Positions 15,046 through 34,116 of a DNA stretch of 36,154 bases are shown here, piece by piece. The DNA comes from a virus. Position numbers and translations under genes: made by a program. The notes beneath the pieces are model-generated. The model was not told where the DNA came from. It saw only the letters and a program-made list of their open reading frames with translations, and did no database searches. How positions within the stretch are numbered: the first letter of the stretch is position 1; each line of letters starts with the position of its first letter. The stretch lies in UHGV virus genome UHGV-0071286, one strand, 5' to 3'.

Positions 15046-15058
15046 ATCCAACAAGAAA

Positions 15059-15293
15059 GCCCCTCCGGAGAGGGGCTGGAGAGTAGCGCTATGTACCGTT
15101 CATGCATGGTGCAGGGTGCCTCCCGGTGAGTTCAGTATCAGCACCTGAACCCGCACCAGAAAGGATAAGGGGTGTGACCAAACACCTGTCGCTGATATGC
15201 CCCTCCGCACAGGGGGATTCACCATGCCATATTTTTTTAACAAACTTCCCGCTGGCCAGACAATAATCGCCAGCCTGAATTGTGAGTAACGTG
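15059..15293 (-). repeat. sRNA-like repeat unit 1, ending in an intrinsic terminator on the minus strand
   Basis: Paralogous to 15542..15755 in blocks (shared 18-bp perfect palindrome GCCCCTCCGGAGAGGGGC at the 3' end, shared GGGGGATTCACCA, TTTTTAACAAA, CCAGACAAT, GAATTGTGAG). On the minus strand the palindrome is followed by UUUCUUGU. Confidence 0.6.
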
Positions 15294-15323: not shown

Positions 15324-15540
15324 AAAAAGGCCCGCCGGAGCGAGCCTGGAAGGATAGCGGTCATGTGATGCCGGTTTCCCGGTAACTCAGCATCGGTATC
15401 TGAGTCAACGTTTTCTCTACTGGGTCATTTCCGATACGTTCCGCCTTCCGGCAGACTTTCATCACGTCAGAAAATATAGCACCCTGAGTAACAGGACAGT
15501 ACTCAGAATTCAGGAAACTGTGACACATCCTGCACAGAAA
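15324..15540 (-). other. Third, more diverged sRNA-like unit with its own terminator
   Basis: Minus-strand hairpin GGCUCGC-UCCG-GCGGGCC (15329-15346) followed by UUUUUACUG; upstream segment shares the ACCGGGA…CATG…GCTA pattern with units 1 and 2. Confidence 0.35.
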
Positions 15541-15541
15541 A

Positions 15542-15755
15542 GCCCCTCCGGAGAGGGGCTGAAGTATAGCCTAATTTCTGTCTGTCGCATGGTGCCAGGT
15601 GCCTCCCGGTAAATTCAGCCTGGCTACTGAATTTGCATGTTCGCTGGATCATACACTTTGCCAGATGCCCCGCCGCTGAGGGGGATTCACCACGCGATGC
15701 AATTTTTAACAAATTCTCCGGCAGCCAGACAATCATCAAGCTGTGGAATTGTGAG
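15542..15755 (-). repeat. sRNA-like repeat unit 2, ending in an intrinsic terminator on the minus strand
   Basis: Same architecture as unit 1; identical terminal palindrome 15542-15559 followed on the minus strand by UUUUCUGUG. Confidence 0.6.
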
Positions 15756-19339: not shown

Positions 19340-19647
19340 GACAACGCCCTCTGGTTGATGAATTTAACTATCACCACCGTCAGGTGCAAATCTTTGGGTG
19401 GTGAGACGTACAGGGTTTGCACTACCGGATCAACCAACCGGCGAGCCTTTCGGCTCCCCCATACGCCCCACCATAATTCAGATGTGCGTGTGCTTACGAC
19501 AACAAAAAACACGCTCGCGGCGTGTGTCTGTCGCGGTTGAATATCCGGGGTGCAAATCCCGACGCCAGATTTTGCTGGCGTGCGAAGAATATAATCCCGG
19601 ATATGTGTTGTCGTCAACATACCTTGAATGTATATAACAAATTTGTT

Positions 19648-25351: not shown

Positions 25352-26068
<717 letters not shown>

Positions 26069-26099: not shown

Positions 26100-26861
26100 A
26101 TGACACAGTTTCAACTTGCATTAATCGCTAGAGAAGTTGATGGAGAAGTCATCCATCTTCGCACCAAAGACGGATACATCAATGCCACCGCGATGTGCAA
26201 GTCTGCGGGGAAGCTACTTGCTGACTATACACGACTAAAAACAACACAAGATTTTTTTGATGAATTATCACGCGATATGGGGATTCCCATATCGGAGTTA
26301 ATTCAATCATTTAAAGGCGGAAGAGCAGAGAATCAAGGGACTTGGGTTCATCCAGACATCGCAATTAATTTAGCTCAGTGGCTATCTCCAAAATTTGCAG
26401 TGCAAGTATCGAGATGGGTGCGTGAGTGGATGTCAGGTGAAAGAGCGCCTGCCGAACTCCCTATCCACCTTAAGCGGTATATGACAAACCGAGGCAGAGT
26501 TCCTCATACGCACTTTTCTATGCTTAATGAACTGACGTTTAACTTGGTTGCGCCACTTGAACAGGCCGGATATACGCTGCCAGAAAAAATGGTCCCTGAT
26601 ATTTCAGAGGGTAGGGTTTTCTCGCAATGGCTCCGTGACAACCGGGGGGTTGAGCCGAAGACATTCCCAACATATAACCATGAGTACCCAGATGGCCGGA
26701 CATTCCCGGTACGTCTATACCCAAACGAATATCTTGCAGATTTCAAACAACACTTCAACGAAGTGTGGCTGCCTCAGTACGCTCCTAAATATTTTGCTGA
26801 ACGAGACCAAAGGGCATTGACGTTGATTGAGAAAATCATGCTACCTGACCTTGATTCCTAA
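26100..26861 (+). CDS. KilA-N domain protein (253 aa) in the position of rexAB; BstA-like candidate
   Basis: KilA-N signature …GYINATAMCKSAGKLL…GTWVHPDIAINLAQWLSPKFAVQVSRWV…; 31 nt after the cI stop with SD AGGA; followed by a terminator and lambda-type OL. Confidence 0.7.
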   Translation: MTQFQLALIAREVDGEVIHLRTKDGYINATAMCKSAGKLLADYTRLKTTQDFFDELSRDMGIPISELIQSFKGGRAENQGTWVHPDIAINLAQWLSPKFAVQVSRWVREWMSGERAPAELPIHLKRYMTNRGRVPHTHFSMLNELTFNLVAPLEQAGYTLPEKMVPDISEGRVFSQWLRDNRGVEPKTFPTYNHEYPDGRTFPVRLYPNEYLADFKQHFNEVWLPQYAPKYFAERDQRALTLIEKIMLPDLDS

Positions 26862-26895: not shown

Positions 26896-27046
26896 GCCTC
26901 ACCCCCCACCTAAAGACACATAACCAAATGTATTTATTGAAAAATAAATAGATACAACTCACTAAACATCGCAATTCAGATCTCTCGATCACCTCCCAAG
27001 CCACTCAACCCTGCAAAAAATAAATCCATATAAAAAACATACAGAT

Positions 27047-27109
27047 AACCATCTGCGGTGATAAATTATCTCTGGCGGTGTTGACATAAATACCACTGGC
27101 GGTGATACT
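27047..27109 (+). promoter_or_regulatory. Lambda-type OL3-OL2-OL1 operators and PL promoter (-35 TTGACA 27081-27086, -10 GATACT 27104-27109)
   Basis: Matches the lambda OL/PL sequence …AACCATCTGCGGTGATAAATTATCTCTGGCGGTGTTGACATAAATACCACTGGCGGTGATACT. Confidence 0.9.
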
Positions 27110-27177
27110 AAACACATCAGCAGGACGCACTACTCACCTGGGCGGTGAATATACAACGATTCAAATATGAATCTACG

Positions 27178-27192
27178 GCGCTGACAAAGCGC
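27178..27192 (+). promoter_or_regulatory. nutL boxB candidate GCGCUGACAAAGCGC (P22/H-19B-type loop)
   Basis: Perfect 5-bp stem with GACAA loop about 60 nt downstream of the PL start; same loop as nutR; no clear boxA seen upstream. Confidence 0.5.
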
Positions 27193-27357
27193 AATAACCA
27201 AAGTGAACTTTGGGGTGTGGTGAAGGGTTCATGGACGGGAATATGTCGCACGTAAAGCGGCGAGGCCTGCGGGACTATTGCCGAATTGAAGTAGGCCGAA
27301 ACAGGTCGAAATGGGTCTCCCACCTACCACACCACCAAAGTTCATCAGGAGGTCTAT

Positions 27358-27741
27358 ATGACACGCAGAACTCAGTTCAAAGGCAATTCACGTTCTCGTC
27401 GTCGTGAGCGTTTAAAGGCAAAGGCATTAGCTAACGGCGTGCTGGCCCGCGAAGAAGCAATAAGTTCAGAAGTATTACACCGCCCTACTCTAAGCAGAGC
27501 GCAGATTCAGGCTAAAGGTACTCACGAAACGCCTGAGCGCATAGAAGACGCTAAGCCAATTAAGTTCATGGCACAGGACGTGATCTGGCAACAGAAAGAA
27601 TACAGACGCAATCTGGAGCGAGCGGCCATTGTGTACGCGAATGAGTTTGGACATAAGCAACCAGAAACTGGTGTATGTCTTCCAAACGTAGCCATTTACG
27701 CGGCAGGCTACCGGAAATCCAAACAACTGACGGCGAGGTGA
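27358..27741 (+). CDS. N: Antiterminator N (127 aa) of the P22/H-19B type with N-terminal Arg-rich motif
   Basis: MTRRTQFKGNSRSRRRERLKAKA… ARM and C-terminal …LPNVAIYAAGYRKSKQLTAR; SD AGGAGG 5 nt upstream. Confidence 0.8.
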   Translation: MTRRTQFKGNSRSRRRERLKAKALANGVLAREEAISSEVLHRPTLSRAQIQAKGTHETPERIEDAKPIKFMAQDVIWQQKEYRRNLERAAIVYANEFGHKQPETGVCLPNVAIYAAGYRKSKQLTAR

Positions 27742-27744
27742 TTG

Positions 27745-28458
27745 ATGACCACGCCTTCAGTTTTGCCGCAAAAATTATGGCGTCCGCTTGCAGAGATTAA
27801 AAACTTCGTTGAAAAAATGCCTGACGGCGTTCGCCTTACTGAGGTTACTAAAAAAGTTAAGACATTTGCCGAACTGTCAGGAAAGGAGAGAAACCAGCTC
27901 ATCGATTTTATCGATAAACGGGAAAGCATCATTGTATTTAAGGTCAGAAAAGAAGGTTCTGGTAACGGAGTAACCTTTTTACGCCACAAAAAATATGGAT
28001 ATCCCAAGCGGGAAGGAAACGTCACAATCATTAAGGACCTTCAATCAAAATTATGTACCAGATGCGGGCAGACAAAATCAGTCAATGATTTTTATTCAGA
28101 TGCCAGCAAGCGTGACGGGAGAGCCATTTATTGCAAGAAGTGCGAATCTGCAATGAAACGCTCACGCAGAGAATGCAACAAATTAATTCTGCAACAACAG
28201 GAACCTGAAGTGAATAACCTCAAAGCAGTTTCACCTTCACCAGAAATACTCAGAAAACAGGCTGAAGAATTGCTGAAAGCCGCCGAAATTGCGGAGAAAA
28301 AACGCCAGGAAGATGATGAATTCAACAAAAAACTTGCGCCCTTAAAACTTGAAATTCTTCAGGCCGCCGGAAAAATGCAGCTTAAACTGGACGAATTCAT
28401 CGACTGTATGGATGAAATGAATAAAGCAGTTCAGAAGCTTAAAGAGCTGACCGCCTGA
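27745..28458 (+). CDS. Hypothetical protein with Zn-ribbon and Lys/Glu-rich helical tail (237 aa)
   Basis: ATG at 27745 (track start 27742 is a TTG); CTRCGQTK…CKKCES motif; AT-rich. Confidence 0.5.
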   Translation: MTTPSVLPQKLWRPLAEIKNFVEKMPDGVRLTEVTKKVKTFAELSGKERNQLIDFIDKRESIIVFKVRKEGSGNGVTFLRHKKYGYPKREGNVTIIKDLQSKLCTRCGQTKSVNDFYSDASKRDGRAIYCKKCESAMKRSRRECNKLILQQQEPEVNNLKAVSPSPEILRKQAEELLKAAEIAEKKRQEDDEFNKKLAPLKLEILQAAGKMQLKLDEFIDCMDEMNKAVQKLKELTA

Positions 28459-28489
28459 TATTAATAAATTGCAACTACCGGAGTTAACT

Positions 28490-28849
28490 ATGAACGAAAC
28501 AGAACTGAAGCACATTATCGCCCTGCTTCTGGAAGATGCCAAACAGGTTTATCGACTTAGCCCAAATTCCGCAACGCTGACACGCATCCAGATGGCAGAA
28601 AAAGCACTGAAACAGGATAATGAAAACAGCGCATCTGAAGTTGATGCTAATGGTGAAAATGAAGTAATAGAAATAAACAGCAATATCAGCGACAGTTGCG
28701 TCGCTTACAGCCACCAAATAATTCGTGTAAGCGCAAGAATAATGGAATTGATGGCAAGTGAGCTTGAAAAGAACAACATCAAGCCCACTGATTGTTGTTT
28801 AAGAACCGTAATGAACGTTATTTATTACTCGATGTTCCGAAGTCGCTAA
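28490..28849 (+). CDS. Hypothetical protein (119 aa from MNETELKH)
   Basis: ATG at 28490 with SD GGAG 7 nt upstream (track start 28469 is a TTG); AT-rich. Confidence 0.45.
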   Translation: MNETELKHIIALLLEDAKQVYRLSPNSATLTRIQMAEKALKQDNENSASEVDANGENEVIEINSNISDSCVAYSHQIIRVSARIMELMASELEKNNIKPTDCCLRTVMNVIYYSMFRSR

Positions 28850-29027
28850 CAGCGTCGAGTTTTTCATCAAAAAATGATTCAAATACATCGTAAAATACGG
28901 CAATAGCACCGCCCTTATCTACCGCGGCAGGAACTGCCTTTTGAGGTATATCTTTCTCCCTGAATTGTGTGTTGTAGGTATCGACAGCCAGCCGCATCAG
29001 AAACATCACTTTTTCTTCTTGTGTCAT
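28818..29027 (-). CDS. Oppositely oriented small protein (69 aa) embedded in the PL operon
   Basis: ATG at 29027 with strong SD AAGGAGA 9 nt upstream; convergent overlap with the 119-aa gene; the plus strand has no credible ORF here. Confidence 0.4.
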   Translation of the reverse strand: MTQEEKVMFLMRLAVDTYNTQFREKDIPQKAVPAAVDKGGAIAVFYDVFESFFDEKLDAVSDFGTSSNK

Positions 29028-29483
29028 AAATTCACTCTCCTTACGGGGTTTGTAGTTGAGGAGTTCTCCACGGGTGAGGTGGAGATCGTGCGCCGGACAC
29101 GGGTGAGTTCCTGCACTCTCAGTTTACTGAACAGACATTACCCTGAAAGCCAGGGTACTACACGAAAGCGCGAGGCGAAGACTCTTTCCCATAGAAGGAT
29201 TGTCGTTAGATTTCTTCGACCGTGCGCTTCCGGTTGTGAATAACAACATTGCTGTGTGTAACCCTTGGCGGATATCGGTTTGCCGATTGCTGATGTCCGC
29301 CCTTTTTAAAGTGAATTTTGTGATGCGGTGAATGCGGCTATGCGCACGCGGAACAGTTAAACCGACAGGATGTCACGGAAAGTCATCGTCCCCTGACCCG
29401 GCGTTAGTTGTTAACTGGTTAACGTCACCTGGAGGCACCAGGCACCGCATCAACAAAGTTCATTTGTGAAAATGGAGATAATT

Positions 29484-29705
29484 ATGATTGCTCATCACTT
29501 CGGAACTGATGAAATACCACGTCAGTGCGTGACGCCTGGCGATTATGTTCTTCATGAAGGTCGGACATATATCGCTTCAGCAAACAATATTGAAAAGAGA
29601 AAACTCTATATTCGTAACTTCACAACAAAAACATGCATTACCGACTGCATGATTAAAGTTTTCATCGGGCGCGATGGCTTACCCGTAAAAGCAGCGTCGT
29701 TGTGA
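29484..29705 (+). CDS. Hypothetical small protein (73 aa from MIAHHFG)
   Basis: ATG at 29484 with SD GGAG 7 nt upstream (track start 29466 is a GTG). Confidence 0.35.
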
Positions 29706-29788
29706 CGAGTAATAAAATACACCTTCCATATCTGTAACAGACAAGCCGAAATAAAACCGCATTAATTATCAATCACGGAAAAATCAAA

Positions 29789-30175
29789 ATGAAAGAACTT
29801 GCGCAAAATGAAATATTTTCCGAAACCAGTCCTGATGCAATAAATGAACTCAAAGAAATTGCAGAACGCATCAGTAAAATATGCAAAGAATACAAAATCG
29901 ACTTTGTATTTTCTTTTTCAGTGCTTACAGAAGTTGGAAATAACGAATATAAGGACAGTCGTTTTGTTTTATGTGGGTTAAATGGCAAAACACCAAGCCC
30001 ATATATTCATGCTGCACGTGAAGTCGTCAGAAGCAACATTGGAGTACAACAAATCCATACACTGGCGCAGGCTCTTGAGTTTGCAAGAGAAAATTCCGAG
30101 TGCGACTGCCCTGAATGCCAGCACGAAAAGGGAAAAACAACTCACAAAACAGCAAACCAGGCAACCTTCCACTGA
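29789..30175 (+). CDS. Hypothetical protein (128 aa) with C-terminal CxC…CPEC cluster
   Basis: ORF track; AT-rich; followed by a hairpin at 30183-30206. Confidence 0.45.
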   Translation: MKELAQNEIFSETSPDAINELKEIAERISKICKEYKIDFVFSFSVLTEVGNNEYKDSRFVLCGLNGKTPSPYIHAAREVVRSNIGVQQIHTLAQALEFARENSECDCPECQHEKGKTTHKTANQATFH

Positions 30176-30282
30176 AATAAAAATCCGGCAGCGCAGGCTA
30201 CCGGATTTCTCCCTGCGTCACCGTATTCGGAGAAATCAGACAAAGGGCCGCTAATTCTAATCCAGCCAGAGGTTTAAATACA

Positions 30283-32355
30283 ATGAGCGCTGATAAACAG
30301 ACTTTTGCACTACACTGCGAAGCAAAAAACGATAAAGTCAGAAAACGCCTTGGCATCAAAGGCGGTTTTTTCTGGACCGAGGCCAGAAAACTTTCTGTCG
30401 CAGTTTCCCGCTGCATTGCAGCCATGGACGATGCAGGCTACGACGAGGATGATTTCAAAAAACCCGTTCGCGTAAATTTCCCCGTCGTGAATGACCTTCC
30501 ACCGGAAGGCGTGTTTGATACTGAATTCTGCAACCGCTATGAAAAAGGCGGTAACGATGGCATCACCATGATGGCTATCCCCTTCGATGACAACATCAAC
30601 GGTGAAGATGCCACAACTGCTGGCGATGACAACGATAACCTGGACGGAACTATTCCGGATGATGTGGAGAAAAGCGAATCCCCGGACAGCGACGATGACT
30701 GTTCTGAGTGTGAAATTCCCGTCGCCACTCTGAGCCTTACTCATCGCTTCCTTCACCTCTTCTTATTCAGCAAAGATGAAGATGGAAAATACCGGCATCA
30801 TGCCACACCAGAACAACGCAATAACGTGATCCGTATGGAGATGGACACAGAGGACAGTTACCTTCAGAGCCTGCTTACTGCTGTGCGCGCCGCGCATCAT
30901 GAACTGGATAAACTGACGAACTATCACCTTAGTCGCCTGGCTGAATCTGTAGGGAAAGCATTCCCCCACTCTGCAAATCATCGCATCAGCCCGGCTGAAT
31001 TCGACAAGTTCATTTCCACCTGGATGAAAACTGACTACCTTGATCAGGGCCTGCTGACAAAAGAATGGCAGAACGGAAATTATGTTTCAGGCATTACCCG
31101 TACGCCTTCCGGTGCTAACGCTGGCGGCGGAAATATTACCGATCGTGGTGAAGGATTCAAACATGATAAGACATCACTCGCACGAGATGTAGCCACCGGC
31201 GTTCTGGCCCGTTCAATGGATGTGGATATTTATAACCTGCACCCAGCACACGCAAAACGCGTTGAAGAAATCGTGTCAGAGAATAAGCCGCCCTTTTCTG
31301 TTTTTCGCGACAAATTTATCGCCATGCCCGGTGGGCTGGATTATTCCCGCGCCATTGTGGTGGCTTCCGTGAAAGAAGCACCAATCGGCATTGAGGCCAT
31401 CCCGGCACGCGTGACTGAATATCTCAACAAAGTGTTGACCGAAACCGATCACGCTAACCCGGATCCGGAAATCGTGGAAATTGCCTGCGGTCGCTCATCA
31501 GCACCGATGCCGCAGCGCGGAACAGCAGAAGGAAAACATGGCGATGAAGAAAAGCAACAAGCATCGGACACAATGGCTAATGAACAGGCAGCGCCTGAAT
31601 CAGTGGAAGAAATTCCAGTTAAACATAATGAGGACACGCAATCACTGGAAAATGTCTCATCTGTAGAAACGAAATACCAGGAACTGAGGGAGGAACTCAA
31701 TAAAGCCAGGGAAAACATCCCCCCAAAAAATCCAGTCGATGCCGACAAATTACTGGCTGCCTCGCGTGGAGAATTCGTTGAAGGCATCAGTAACCCTGCT
31801 GATCCGAAGTGGGTGAAGGGGATCCAGACTCGCGACACTGAGGACCAGAATCAGTCCAAAGTGGAACAAATTGCCCCAGAAGCGGGACAAAACAGCCCGG
31901 ATACGCAACAAAACGGGTCAGAAGAGCAACAGCCAGGGCCAGTAGCGCAACCGGAGCTGGAAAAAAACTGCCGCGTCTGTGGTCAGACTGGCGGGGGTAA
32001 CTGCCCTGACTGTAGTGCGGTAATGGGCGATAGCACTTACACAGAAACTTTTGGAGAAAATGACGCCGCTGATGGAGAAGACTCAGCACAAACTGAGGAG
32101 AAGATCATTCAGGAAAACTCTGTTGATGCCGCTCAGGAGGGCGAAACCGTTGTTCAGAACGAGCCAGGCAGTGATACGTCCGGCGATGACGCCAATTCTG
32201 AGCCAGTAACTCTCGACTGGAAAAGACAGCTCGTGATTGCCGCCGTCTATGGTTTGTGCGCCAACCCCGCATGTATAGCCACAGCGCCAGCAATCCCTGA
32301 TATCGCCATCATGATTGCCAACAGGCTTGAAAATTTCGGAGGTGATAAATCATGA
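30283..32355 (+). CDS. Large acidic hypothetical protein (690 aa) with C-terminal CxxC…CxxC ribbon and hydrophobic tail, translationally coupled to gam
   Basis: ATG at 30283; stop overlaps the gam start (ATGA at 32352-32355); long Asp/Glu/Gln-rich low-complexity tracts; [16 protein letters not shown]; terminal [29 protein letters not shown]. Confidence 0.6.
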
Positions 32356-32648
32356 ATGCCTGGCTTATCCCCGATCGCATTGAAGAGCAGTCATGGGCAC
32401 GACACTACCAGCAAATTGCCCGTGAAGAAACTGAAGCTGAGCTGGCAGACGACCTGGAAAAAGGTCTGCCCCAACACCTGTTTGAATCGCTATGCATCGA
32501 TAATCTGCAACGTCACGGGGCCAGCAAAAAAGCTATTTCCCGTGCATTTGATGACGATGTCGATTTTCAGGAACGCATGGCAGAACACATCCGCTACATG
32601 GCTGAAACCATCGCCCGTCACCAAATTAATATTGATTCAGAGGTATAA
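32352..32648 (+). CDS. gam: Gam (RecBCD inhibitor), short form, 98 aa
   Basis: …[19 protein letters not shown]…[21 protein letters not shown]… matches lambda Gam; SD GGAGGTGA. Confidence 0.9.
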
Positions 32649-32653
32649 AACGG

Positions 32654-33439
32654 ATGAGTACAGCACTCGCAACGCTGGCAGGGAAGCTGGCTGAACGTGT
32701 CGGCATGGATTCTGTCGACCCACAGGAACTAATCACCACTCTTCGCCAGACGGCATTTAAAGGTGATGCCAGCGATGCGCAATTTATCGCATTGTTGATC
32801 GTCGCCAACCAGTACGGCCTTAATCCCTGGACGAAAGAAATTTACGCCTTCCCTGACAAGCAGAACGGCATCGTTCCGGTGGTTGGCGTTGATGGCTGGT
32901 CCCGCATTATCAATGAAAACCAGCAGTTTGATGGCATGGACTTTGAGCAGGACAATGAGTCCTGTACATGCCGGATTTACCGCAAAGATCGCAATCACCC
33001 GATCTGCGTTACCGAGTGGATGGATGAATGTCGCCGCGCACCATTCAAAACCCGCGAAGGCAGAGAAATCACCGGACCGTGGCAGTCGCATCCCAAACGG
33101 ATGTTACGGCACAAAGCCATGATTCAGTGTGCTCGCCTGGCCTTCGGATTTGCTGGCATCTATGACAAGGATGAAGCCGAGCGTATTGTCGAAAATACTG
33201 CATATACTACAGAACGTCAGCCGGAACGCGACATCACCCCGGTTAACGAAGAAACCATGTCGGAAATTAACGCCCTTCTTACTTCCATGGAAAAAACGTG
33301 GGATGACGACCTGTTGCCGCTCTGTTCCCAGATTTTTCGCCGCAACATTTACACATCTTCAGAACTAACACAGGCTGAAGCTGTGAAGGTTCTTGGATTC
33401 CTGAAACAGAAAGTCACAGAGCAGAAGGTAGCAGCATGA
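32654..33439 (+). CDS. bet: Bet (Red-beta single-strand annealing protein), 261 aa
   Basis: Near-identical to lambda Bet as recalled ([37 protein letters not shown]…). Confidence 0.95.
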
Positions 33440-34116
33440 CACCGGACATTATCCTGCAACGTACAGGGATCGACGTGAGAGCTGTCGAACAGGGGGATGA
33501 TGCGTGGCACAAATTACGGCTCGGCGTCATCACCGCTTCAGAAGTTCACAACGTGATAGCAAAACCCCGCTCAGGAAAGAAATGGCCTGACATGAAAATG
33601 TCCTACTTCCACACCCTGCTGGCTGAGGTTTGCACCGGTGTGGCTCCGGAAGTTAACGCTAAAGCGCTGGCCTGGGGAACACAGTACGAGAACGACGCCA
33701 GAGCCCTCTTTGAGTTCACTTCCGGCGTGAATGTTACTGAATCCCCGATCATCTATCGCGACGAAAGTATGCGCACCGCCTGCTCTCCCGATGGTTTATG
33801 CAGTGACGGCAACGGCCTTGAGCTGAAATGCCCGTTTACCTCCCGGGATTTCATGAAGTTCCGGCTCGGTGGTTTCGAGGCCATAAAGTCGGCTTACATG
33901 GCCCAGGTGCAGTACAGCATGTGGGTGACACGAAAAGATGCCTGGTACTTTGCCAACTATGACCCACGAATGAAGCGTGAAGGCCTGCATTATGTCGTGG
34001 TTGAGCGGGATGAAAATTACATGGCGAGTTTTGACGAGATGGTGCCGGAGTTCATCGAAAAAATGGACGAGGCACTGGCTGAAATTGGTTTTGTATTTGG
34101 GGAGCAATGGCGATAG
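33436..34116 (+). CDS. exo: Exo (Red-alpha 5'-3' exonuclease), 226 aa
   Basis: Near-identical to lambda Exo as recalled ([65 protein letters not shown]…); ATGA overlap with bet. Confidence 0.95.

Follow-up and report, generated by a model that had tools for sequence, protein, structure and literature searches.

What does a lambdoid prophage keep between its antiterminator gene N and its recombination genes, and is the stretch without an open reading frame (ORF) that lies there truly empty? We address this question for the virus genome UHGV-0071286, a stretch of 36,154 nucleotides (nt) that we refer to in its entirety as the window, and specifically for the block at positions 27745-30175. This block lies between N and a gene encoding a protein of 690 amino acids (aa), within the immunity/early-left region of a lambdoid prophage whose leftward (pL) transcription runs on the + strand of the window. 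A first-pass annotation had placed five ORFs here, of 237, 119, 73 and 128 aa on the + strand and of 69 aa on the - strand, all of which we recovered at the same coordinates. It had further described the block as an AT-rich moron that replaces the lambda ral/ea10/cIII/kil region, a site of host-takeover and anti-restriction functions, and that includes a non-coding gap of 420 bp. We find that this gap is instead a structured RNA module, the most conserved part of the block, leading into a kil gene. Taken as a whole, the explanation we consider probable, with appreciable room for error, is that the block represents the delayed-early pL segment of a lambda-immunity, Shiga toxin (Stx)-phage-like prophage, assembled from modules shared with the cryptic prophages Rac and Qin. 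Its core would be a cassette of a reverse-strand cargo gene, a GC-rich launch pad, a KilS/DicF small RNA (sRNA) that doubles as a terminator, an STnc100-like leader of ~160 nt, and kilR, with the sRNA and leader gating kil and with the 237-, 119- and 128-aa proteins as conserved early-left passengers. Our confidence in the individual mechanistic steps is much lower than in this overall picture.

A predicted sRNA of the KilS/DicF family in front of kil

The 73-aa ORF (29484-29705, +; Shine-Dalgarno (SD) sequence GGAG at 29474-29477) matches NCBIfam NF008465 (PRK11354; Pfam PF27398) over residues 1-72 of 73 with 154.9 bits (cutoff 92, E 4e-46), and also matches phrog_294, 'Kil protein for bacterial septation inhibition'. 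Escherichia/Shigella KilR loci are 92-93% identical to the protein, and the gene is annotated as kil in Escherichia phage PhiR5_2 and Shigella phage 75/02 Stx. By homology, the ORF is Rac-type KilR, an FtsZ inhibitor; kil is therefore present in its Rac form, and the idea that the block replaces the lambda ral/ea10/cIII/kil region holds for its position but fails for kil itself. The silencing of kilR by NusG takes the form of Rho/NusG-dependent termination. Published work describes KilR as inhibiting FtsZ and cell elongation (PMC5793797, PMC13501541, PMC12482147), and kilR is reported to be kept silent through NusG under normal conditions and to be relieved by OxyS repression of nusG (PMC5793797, PMC13501541).

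Upstream of kil we identified a predicted KilS-type, DicF-family sRNA (29205-29307, +), which at the same time forms an intrinsic terminator ahead of the gene. It comprises a -10-like TAGATT (29207-29212, +), a single-stranded seed part AUUGCUGUGUGUA (29248-29260, +) identical to RprA nt 60-72, and a terminator hairpin (29267-29301, +), the 13-bp stem of which belongs to the minimum free energy (MFE) fold, followed by U5 at 29303-29307. In BLAST searches, 29047-29464 was ~81% identical to the Qin-like ydfC-dicB intergenic region, which contains dicF, and 29222-29719, spanning the sRNA through kil, was ~83% identical to Rac sieB-kilR; overall, the identity of the gap to these two regions is 81-85%. 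From the end of the sRNA terminator to the kil ATG the distance is 176 nt in the window and in Rac alike (2592 vs 2768 in our Rac locus, L004).

KilS itself has been described as a 98-nt RNA in the kilR 5' untranslated region (UTR) of Rac (MG1655 1,418,502 to 1,418,405), predicted from Hfq RIL-seq (RNA interaction by ligation and sequencing) chimeras, verified by northern blot, apparently transcribed from its own promoter and with yncL as reported partner (PMC8175672). Placed on the Rac locus, it occupies L004:2495-2592, which is exactly the RprA-like seed plus terminator. Because the Rac copy maps exactly onto the named KilS, the window RNA is, judged from its sequence, orthologous to KilS, though with a variant seed, and belongs to a wider DicF scaffold family without being DicF proper. 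Dating from 1994, work by Faubladier and Bouché is said to describe dicF-like sequences, including that of Rac. The text of PMC8175672 contains no mention of DicF, RprA or Rac, and our literature search found KilS together with kilR in no other paper.

The window RNA is like KilS of K-12 Rac in locus type, in its distance from kil and in its terminator scaffold, and it also has the upstream GUUA(A/G)AUUU element and the seed start AACAUUGCUGUGUGUA. The two differ after GUGUGUA, where the window reads ACCCUU and Rac AGUCCU, as a result of which the window matches RprA over 13 rather than 16-20 nt; they also differ in the hairpin loop, and Rac has sieB where the window has the 69-aa reverse gene, together with a different left part of the gap. 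With DicF (RF00039) and its Qin locus ydfABC-dicF-dicB, the window shares an intergenic region that is homologous on both sides of the sRNA, a terminator of the same GGCGG...CCGCCC-U5 type, a location upstream of a division-inhibitor gene and the same leader behind, so that biogenesis by termination and RNase processing would by analogy be plausible. However, the DicF seed UUUCUGGUGACG is missing from the window, which has AACAUUGCUGUGUGUAACCC, the hairpin loop is a different one, and the downstream gene is kilR rather than dicB. Unlike RprA (RF00034), the window RNA lacks the 5' stem-loops and the rpoS-pairing CCCCU element, ends in a different terminator and lies in a prophage.

Comparison of 123 instances of this RNA places these differences in a wider pattern. 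The GGCGG...CCGCCC-U5 terminator hairpin is present in all copies, with stem variants that keep pairing, and the 20-30 nt before it fall into discrete seed types: the canonical DicF seed in 64 copies, the RprA-like AACGACAUUGCUGUGUGUAGUC in 43, CCAUGUUGAUUACCUUU in 8, several rarer types in 1-2 copies each, and the seed of the window, ...GUGUGUAACCCUU, in one. Just 8 seed variants occur among the 43 RprA-like copies. Seed types, hairpin types and downstream genes (kilR, dicB or a third gene, the product of which begins MLNVAIEN...) occur in mixed combinations.

The likeness to RprA was evaluated with a reference sequence 100% identical to the annotated rprA gene. One prophage copy agrees with RprA at 28 of 30 positions over nt 51-80 and at all 20 over nt 60-79; the window, where only RprA nt 48-72 align, agrees at 13 of 13 positions (29248-29260). 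Alignment scores of 32-48 compare with a maximum of 23-25 for shuffled sequences, and no RprA alignment was found for the DicF-type and type C copies. In RprA as in the prophage RNAs, this RprA-like segment immediately precedes the terminator stem on its 5' side. A separate occurrence was observed on the phage-like E. coli plasmid NZ_JBRBPZ010000006.1, where 46 nt (within L126:2501-2554) are 96% identical to RprA nt 60-105; by this alignment the RprA 3' part, seed and terminator included, exists in a second and independent mobile copy. The plasmid also encodes tRNAs, a late promoter activator, a pacase and Tad2.

A structured kil leader with a paralog in the same phage

Between the U-tract of the sRNA and the kil SD lies a structured, STnc100-like leader of ~160 nt (29308-29483, +). 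Its outer helix of ~21 bp pairs 29310-29330 with 29443-29464, the 3' arm ending 9 nt before the kil SD, and encloses three conserved hairpins and one arm that varies in length and sequence; a hairpin CCUGG-AGGCA-CCAGG lies at 29428-29442 (+), and the MFE z-score of the leader is -3.3. The first-pass annotation had rightly noticed paired GTTAAC palindromes in the gap, but had taken them as a feature of the DNA; the pair (GTTAACTGGTTAAC, 29410-29423) is instead the apex of leader hairpin P4.

In common with STnc100/PasD (RF02076; preprint 10.64898/2026.05.13.724894), the kil leader has a multi-branch fold closed by a GGUG...CACC helix and a CCNGG-AGGCA-CCNGG hairpin. It differs in having no terminator of its own and a much longer outer helix, and in lying between an sRNA and a coding gene of the early-left operon rather than in the pR' late leader. 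The resemblance is reciprocal, since the Rfam STnc100 model finds the leader and a covariance model built from 15 kil/dicB leaders alone (R1) finds both bona fide STnc100 copies of the window, with 49.2 bits (E 5e-12) and 40.2 bits (E 1.6e-9). These two full STnc100 sRNA copies, at 15047-15256 (-) and 15532-15725 (-), score 130 and 139 bits and have the same core fold as the kil leader; they lie in the late-leader region, downstream of a Q-like gene and ahead of a gene for 667 aa.

R1 also finds the leader of N (27200-27347, +; 34.6 bits, E 5.6e-8), in which an outer helix of ~19 bp ends just before the N SD (MFE z-score -3.75). Between the helices of the N and kil leaders, three pairs have changed in fully compensatory fashion (C-G to U-A, A-U to G-C and U-A to G-C) and two further changes are compatible through wobble pairing, none being disruptive; no other structural support for the helix is as strong as this comparison of paralogs. 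The N-leader copy was found only with this type of N, where it probably marks RNase III-type control of N. The lambda N leader carries an RNase III hairpin, a long helix just upstream of the SD of an early gene. The N and kil leaders of the window likewise have a long helix before the SD; the likeness is one of placement, and cleavage of the window helices is putative. At the Qin locus, RNase III generates a 72-nt DicF species, which extends 19 nt beyond the terminated form (PMC5069750, PMC9438474), and a point 19 nt past the terminated end falls in the 5' arm of the leader outer helix.

An alternative interpretation of sRNA and leader is that the hairpin is merely an N-gated terminator and the leader merely a long 5' UTR, neither having a trans role, with the RprA likeness a functionless relic of ancestry or recombination. 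This would agree with a hairpin and U-tract that are invariant behind a variable 5' flank, with a KilS that took part in just 3 RIL-seq interactions (PMC8175672), and with a window copy that retains 13 of the 20 RprA-identical nucleotides. Further points weigh against the regulatory reading that we prefer. At relaxed thresholds the Rfam models remain below their gathering scores, DicF at 29253-29302 with 29.2 bits (E 4e-4, gathering 48) and STnc100 at 29304-29498 with 31 bits (E 1e-4, gathering 47), while RprA reaches 22.4 bits in the gap (E 9.5, gathering 70). A consensus promoter scan called no promoter in the gap, the -35 of the sRNA is poor, and its expression in this phage is a prediction. 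When the KilS, window and RprA seeds were paired with yncL, the best duplex, in the yncL 3' UTR, was no better than those of shuffled seeds (p 0.07-0.32). Covariation in the kil/dicB leaders is thin, with compensatory changes in 3 of the 45 RNAalifold pairs, and one arm was frozen because a fixed 27-nt motif had been used to gather the sequences; when GTDB species genomes were scanned with KilR for divergent kil leaders, only 8 loci were returned, all from Escherichia/Shigella or contaminated metagenome-assembled genomes, and covariation could therefore not be deepened. RNase III cleavage of the kil leader is extrapolated from Qin dicF.

What argues against a terminator without further function is the behavior of the seeds, which are conserved within a type, as in the 8 variants of the RprA-like copies, and are exchanged as whole units among hairpin and gene types. 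Moreover, canonical DicF, which has the same build, is a proven trans-acting sRNA (PMC5069750), and KilS emerged from Hfq RIL-seq chimeras and is detected on northern blots (PMC8175672). We therefore regard the terminator-only interpretation as unlikely, if still a serious contender, and prefer a regulatory RNA module. Two further candidates were rejected: a duplex scan of both window strands for a phage-internal target of the sRNA seed returned only the trivial antisense site, and the gap hairpins do not qualify as N-binding boxB, as nothing in the gap is like the P22-type boxB GCGCUGACAAAGCGC.

The block as a shared early-left segment

The AT-richness noted in the first-pass annotation is real: the GC content of the block is 42.5% against 50.0% for the whole window, the lowest-GC stretch of that size starts at 27751, and only 0.1% of same-size windows are equally low. 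It is the coding genes of the block that are low in GC (39.5-42.3%), and the gap, at 51%, therefore forms a GC-rich island within it. The adjacent cI-to-pL region is also lowish in GC, at 45%. Related phages delimit the block further. Over 27300-30400 the window is 99.4% identical to PhiR5_2; from ~27676 on, identity is 96% with phiSTEC1589-Stx1c and 92% with the Shigella phages 75/02 Stx and POCJ13, and about 150 further phages share similarity with N alone. This pattern of matches around ~27676 indicates that the block moves as a module and becomes joined to various N and immunity regions by recombination. The start of similarity lies inside the 3' end of N, about 65 nt before its stop codon, and since phiSTEC1589, 75/02 Stx and POCJ13 encode a different, 90-aa N, ~27676 marks a recombination joint. 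At least some part of 28800-29720 is matched in 4642 of 5426 complete E. coli genomes.

The passenger genes proved less informative. The 237-aa gene (27745-28458, +), directly after N, matches phrog_2539 over its full length (E 8e-130), as do the 119-aa gene (28490-28849, +) phrog_2982 (E 3e-76) and the 128-aa gene (29789-30175, +) phrog_2016 (E 2e-78). Homologs of the 237-aa protein number 67 across Enterobacterales, are placed after N in prophages, and share a conserved N-terminal domain and C-terminal helix, with a zinc ribbon missing in about half. Its AlphaFold2 model (predicted local distance difference test, pLDDT, 81) comprises a winged helix at ~9-81, a CxxC...CxxC zinc-ribbon insert at C101-C134 and a C-terminal 70-residue helix at 166-236; Foldseek against the PDB returned winged-helix proteins exclusively, as weak and generic matches (best E 0.056), and on this model the protein probably binds nucleic acid. 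The 119-aa product is labelled hypothetical in PhiR5_2, phiSTEC1589 and 75/02 Stx. The 128-aa protein has a C-terminal CxC..CxxC motif and its gene stands where Rac has ydaE and racC; the possibility that the protein is a fusion or a diverged form of YdaE/RacC was rejected, as BLASTP found no similarity to either. Sequence searches of Pfam, NCBIfam, PADLOC and the PDB found no family for the 237-, 119-, 128- and 69-aa proteins. Profile and structure searches, which had been proposed at the outset, thus gave KilR for the 73-aa ORF and a fold clue for the 237-aa protein, and the earlier view of these ORFs as lacking known function stands for the 119-, 128- and 69-aa proteins, holds for the 237-aa protein apart from that clue, and is superseded for the 73-aa ORF.

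These data bear on the original proposal, in which the block is an acquired AT-rich moron island that replaces lambda ral-cIII-kil and carries anti-restriction or exclusion genes, the gap being a spacer with DNA palindromes. Composition speaks for it, as do the mosaic joint inside N, the three ORFs without known function, and a hypervariable reverse-strand slot that holds SieB in Rac. The zinc ribbon of the 237-aa protein also matches a Lar-like PHROG family (phrog_5558, E 2.6e-8) over residues 99-161, where endonuclease VII and HNH PHROGs match as well. Family searches of the block ORFs against Pfam and PADLOC recovered no Ral, Lar or SieB at a meaningful level, and PADLOC returned no match anywhere in the block at E <= 0.01; apart from the ribbon hint, no ORF has real homology to anti-restriction or exclusion proteins. 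Against an island also stand the presence of kil, a gene order syntenic with the early-left operons of Rac and Qin, the distribution of the 237-aa family after N with half of its members lacking the ribbon, and a gap that exceeds the rest of the block in both conservation and structure. We consequently consider a foreign island improbable. What persists of the moron proposal is the mosaic joint near 27676 and the moron-like character of the reverse ORF in its variable slot.

A reverse gene in a variable slot

The reverse gene (28818-29027, -) encodes a 69-aa protein that matches phrog_2605 over its full length (E 7e-45). As the first-pass annotation had observed, it has a strong SD (AAGGAGAG, 7 nt before the ATG) and converges on the 119-aa gene, the end of which it overlaps by 32 bp. 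Conservation in relatives, a check suggested at that stage, was borne out by 15 homologs, all in E. coli and with identities down to 46%; diverged members occupy the same place and orientation in two prophage backbones, one kilR-type (N-237-118-(rev)-gap-kilR-128-recE') and one of the Qin, dicB type (ydfA-ydfB-ydfC-201aa-(rev)-gap-dicB-ydfD). The pairwise ratio of nonsynonymous to synonymous substitution rates (dN/dS) is 0.36-0.45 at dS 0.8-1.0, on account of which we treat the ORF as a real gene. That it is instead a chance antisense ORF, as its lack of annotation in PhiR5_2, phiSTEC1589 and 75/02 Stx, its few and exclusively E. coli homologs, its low-confidence structure model, the absence of a called promoter and the diverged and shortened region in 75/02 Stx might suggest, is highly improbable given an intact frame at such dS, its recurrence at one place and strand in two different backbones, its SD, a PHROG family of its own and a slot in which genuine reverse genes, sieB among them, are found.

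The 69-aa protein is small and acidic, with two predicted helices and no predicted membrane span; its AlphaFold2 model is a low-confidence helical hairpin (pLDDT 64, predicted template modelling score 0.31), too poor for a fold search. Searches of Pfam, NCBIfam, PADLOC and the PDB assigned it to no exclusion or defence family, its only match being its own PHROG, one without an assigned function. In Rac, the corresponding reverse-strand slot, immediately upstream of the KilS/kilR module, is taken by sieB, but SieB is a 162-aa membrane protein to which the 69-aa protein has no sequence or family similarity.

Across 105 prophage copies of the cassette, this slot, directly upstream of the sRNA in the pL sense, holds many unrelated small ORFs. 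Families begin with MEDKM... (several), MTSKNV..., MDKKQ... and MSTEND..., and also include a 143-aa zinc-ribbon protein as well as SieB in Rac. Most slot ORFs have in common an element on the - strand that consists of TTTTCAGGG, a 17-nt spacer, TAAACT, a hairpin GUGCCGGAU...UCCGGCGCAC, a second hairpin, the sequence of which varies by cargo class, and an SD. The window copy has its -35 at 29149-29144 and its -10, TAAACT, at 29126-29121 on the - strand. The element lies in the conserved, GC-rich left part of the gap, the launch pad (29028-29204), which would serve on the - strand as a promoter and 5' UTR with two hairpins and is situated on the + strand upstream of the sRNA. It is far more conserved than the cargo gene behind it, and our inference is that it acts as a weak promoter and leader for interchangeable cargo genes, the reverse gene probably being expressed in the lysogen when pL is off. 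Two results count against this role: the consensus promoter scan did not call the reverse-gene promoter, and the launch pad is kept in a Qin-like prophage without a reverse gene, which makes its role on the - strand uncertain.

In seven copies (L010, L037, L047, L062, L066, L089 and L090), unrelated reverse ORFs have a common MEDKM start and upstream leader, so that promoter, ribosome-binding site and first codons look like a fixed platform receiving different cargo by recombination. The 143-aa reverse protein, which fills the slot in two others (L028 and L104), ends in a C-terminal double CxxC zinc ribbon, and its upstream region differs and contains a good TTGTATAAT-like -10.

Proposed mechanism and significance

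Our results on homology, synteny, RNA folds, purifying selection on the reverse gene and identity to RprA are those given above; trans-action of the sRNA and gating of kil are what we infer. In the lysogen, with pL off, short transcripts from an internal promoter or leaky transcripts from upstream would stop at the sRNA terminator, and the terminated RNA would act in trans through a seed that copies a conserved 3' single-stranded segment of RprA, while the reverse gene would be expressed from its own weak promoter. Upon induction, N-modified polymerase would read through the sRNA terminator, and RNase III might cut the leader helix, splitting the sRNA from the kil mRNA and setting kil translation and stability; a transient division block could follow. 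Transcription from pL, head-on to the reverse gene, would then shut the latter off. Beyond this, we offer tentatively, as a proposal that may well prove wrong, that DicF, KilS and their relatives represent one modular scaffold, a fixed terminator plus STnc100-like leader, with seeds swapped by recombination; that the Rac and window seeds mimic or compete with RprA, a host sRNA of the envelope-stress response, on a subset of its targets; and that a helix-closed fold has been reused four times in this phage (N leader, kil leader and the two pR' sRNAs) as an RNase III-gated switch.

The block is present in public phage records, and kil, KilS (in Rac), DicF and STnc100 are already known. New are the un-annotated reverse gene with its variable slot, the recognition of a common scaffold behind KilS, DicF and several other seed types, the likeness of one seed to RprA, and the finding that the kil/dicB and N leaders fold like STnc100. 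In PhiR5_2, phiSTEC1589 and 75/02 Stx, kil is annotated and the rest hypothetical, with neither the reverse ORF nor any RNA marked. Should our inferences hold, a stretch left blank or 'hypothetical' in Stx-type and lambdoid records would contain a complete regulatory cassette, parts of which are present in about 85% of complete E. coli genomes, and DicF, KilS and STnc100/PasD, described separately, would be linked as one modular family. The second commonest seed type, a near-copy of part of RprA, would offer a concrete case, open to testing, in which a core stress regulator is mimicked by a prophage sRNA, and the reverse slot with its shared upstream element would be a natural place to search for lysogen-expressed exclusion or defence genes. 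The basic picture of lambdoid early-left operons is unchanged by these results.

Neighboring genes and further observations

The block is preceded on the + strand by a hybrid control region (27040-27193), in which a lambda-like oL/pL (about 27040-27110), accompanied by a lambda-type cI (25355-26068), is combined with a P22-like nutL boxB (27179-27193, the sequence given above) and a 933W-type N of 127 aa (27358-27741, +). A 253-aa gene (26100-26861, +) separates cI from pL, where lambda has rexAB. Its product has an N-terminal KilA-N domain (Pfam E 8e-27) and a C-terminal half that matches the PADLOC BstA model (E 2.5e-20); from these matches it looks like a BstA-type prophage defence gene. 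On the other side, the 690-aa gene (30283-32355, +) resembles the N-terminal part of RecE, its matches to RecE/exonuclease VIII profiles being confined to their N-terminal ~600 positions (NCBIfam 739 bits, cutoff 1269). It lacks the C-terminal nuclease part, lies directly before gam, bet and exo (32352-34116), and is still named exodeoxyribonuclease VIII in database records. Farther away, in the nin/replication-proximal region, a C4 antisense RNA (19394-19478, -; 74 bits) lies beside an isrK Hfq-binding RNA (19504-19581, -; 75 bits), an arrangement known from Gifsy-type prophages.

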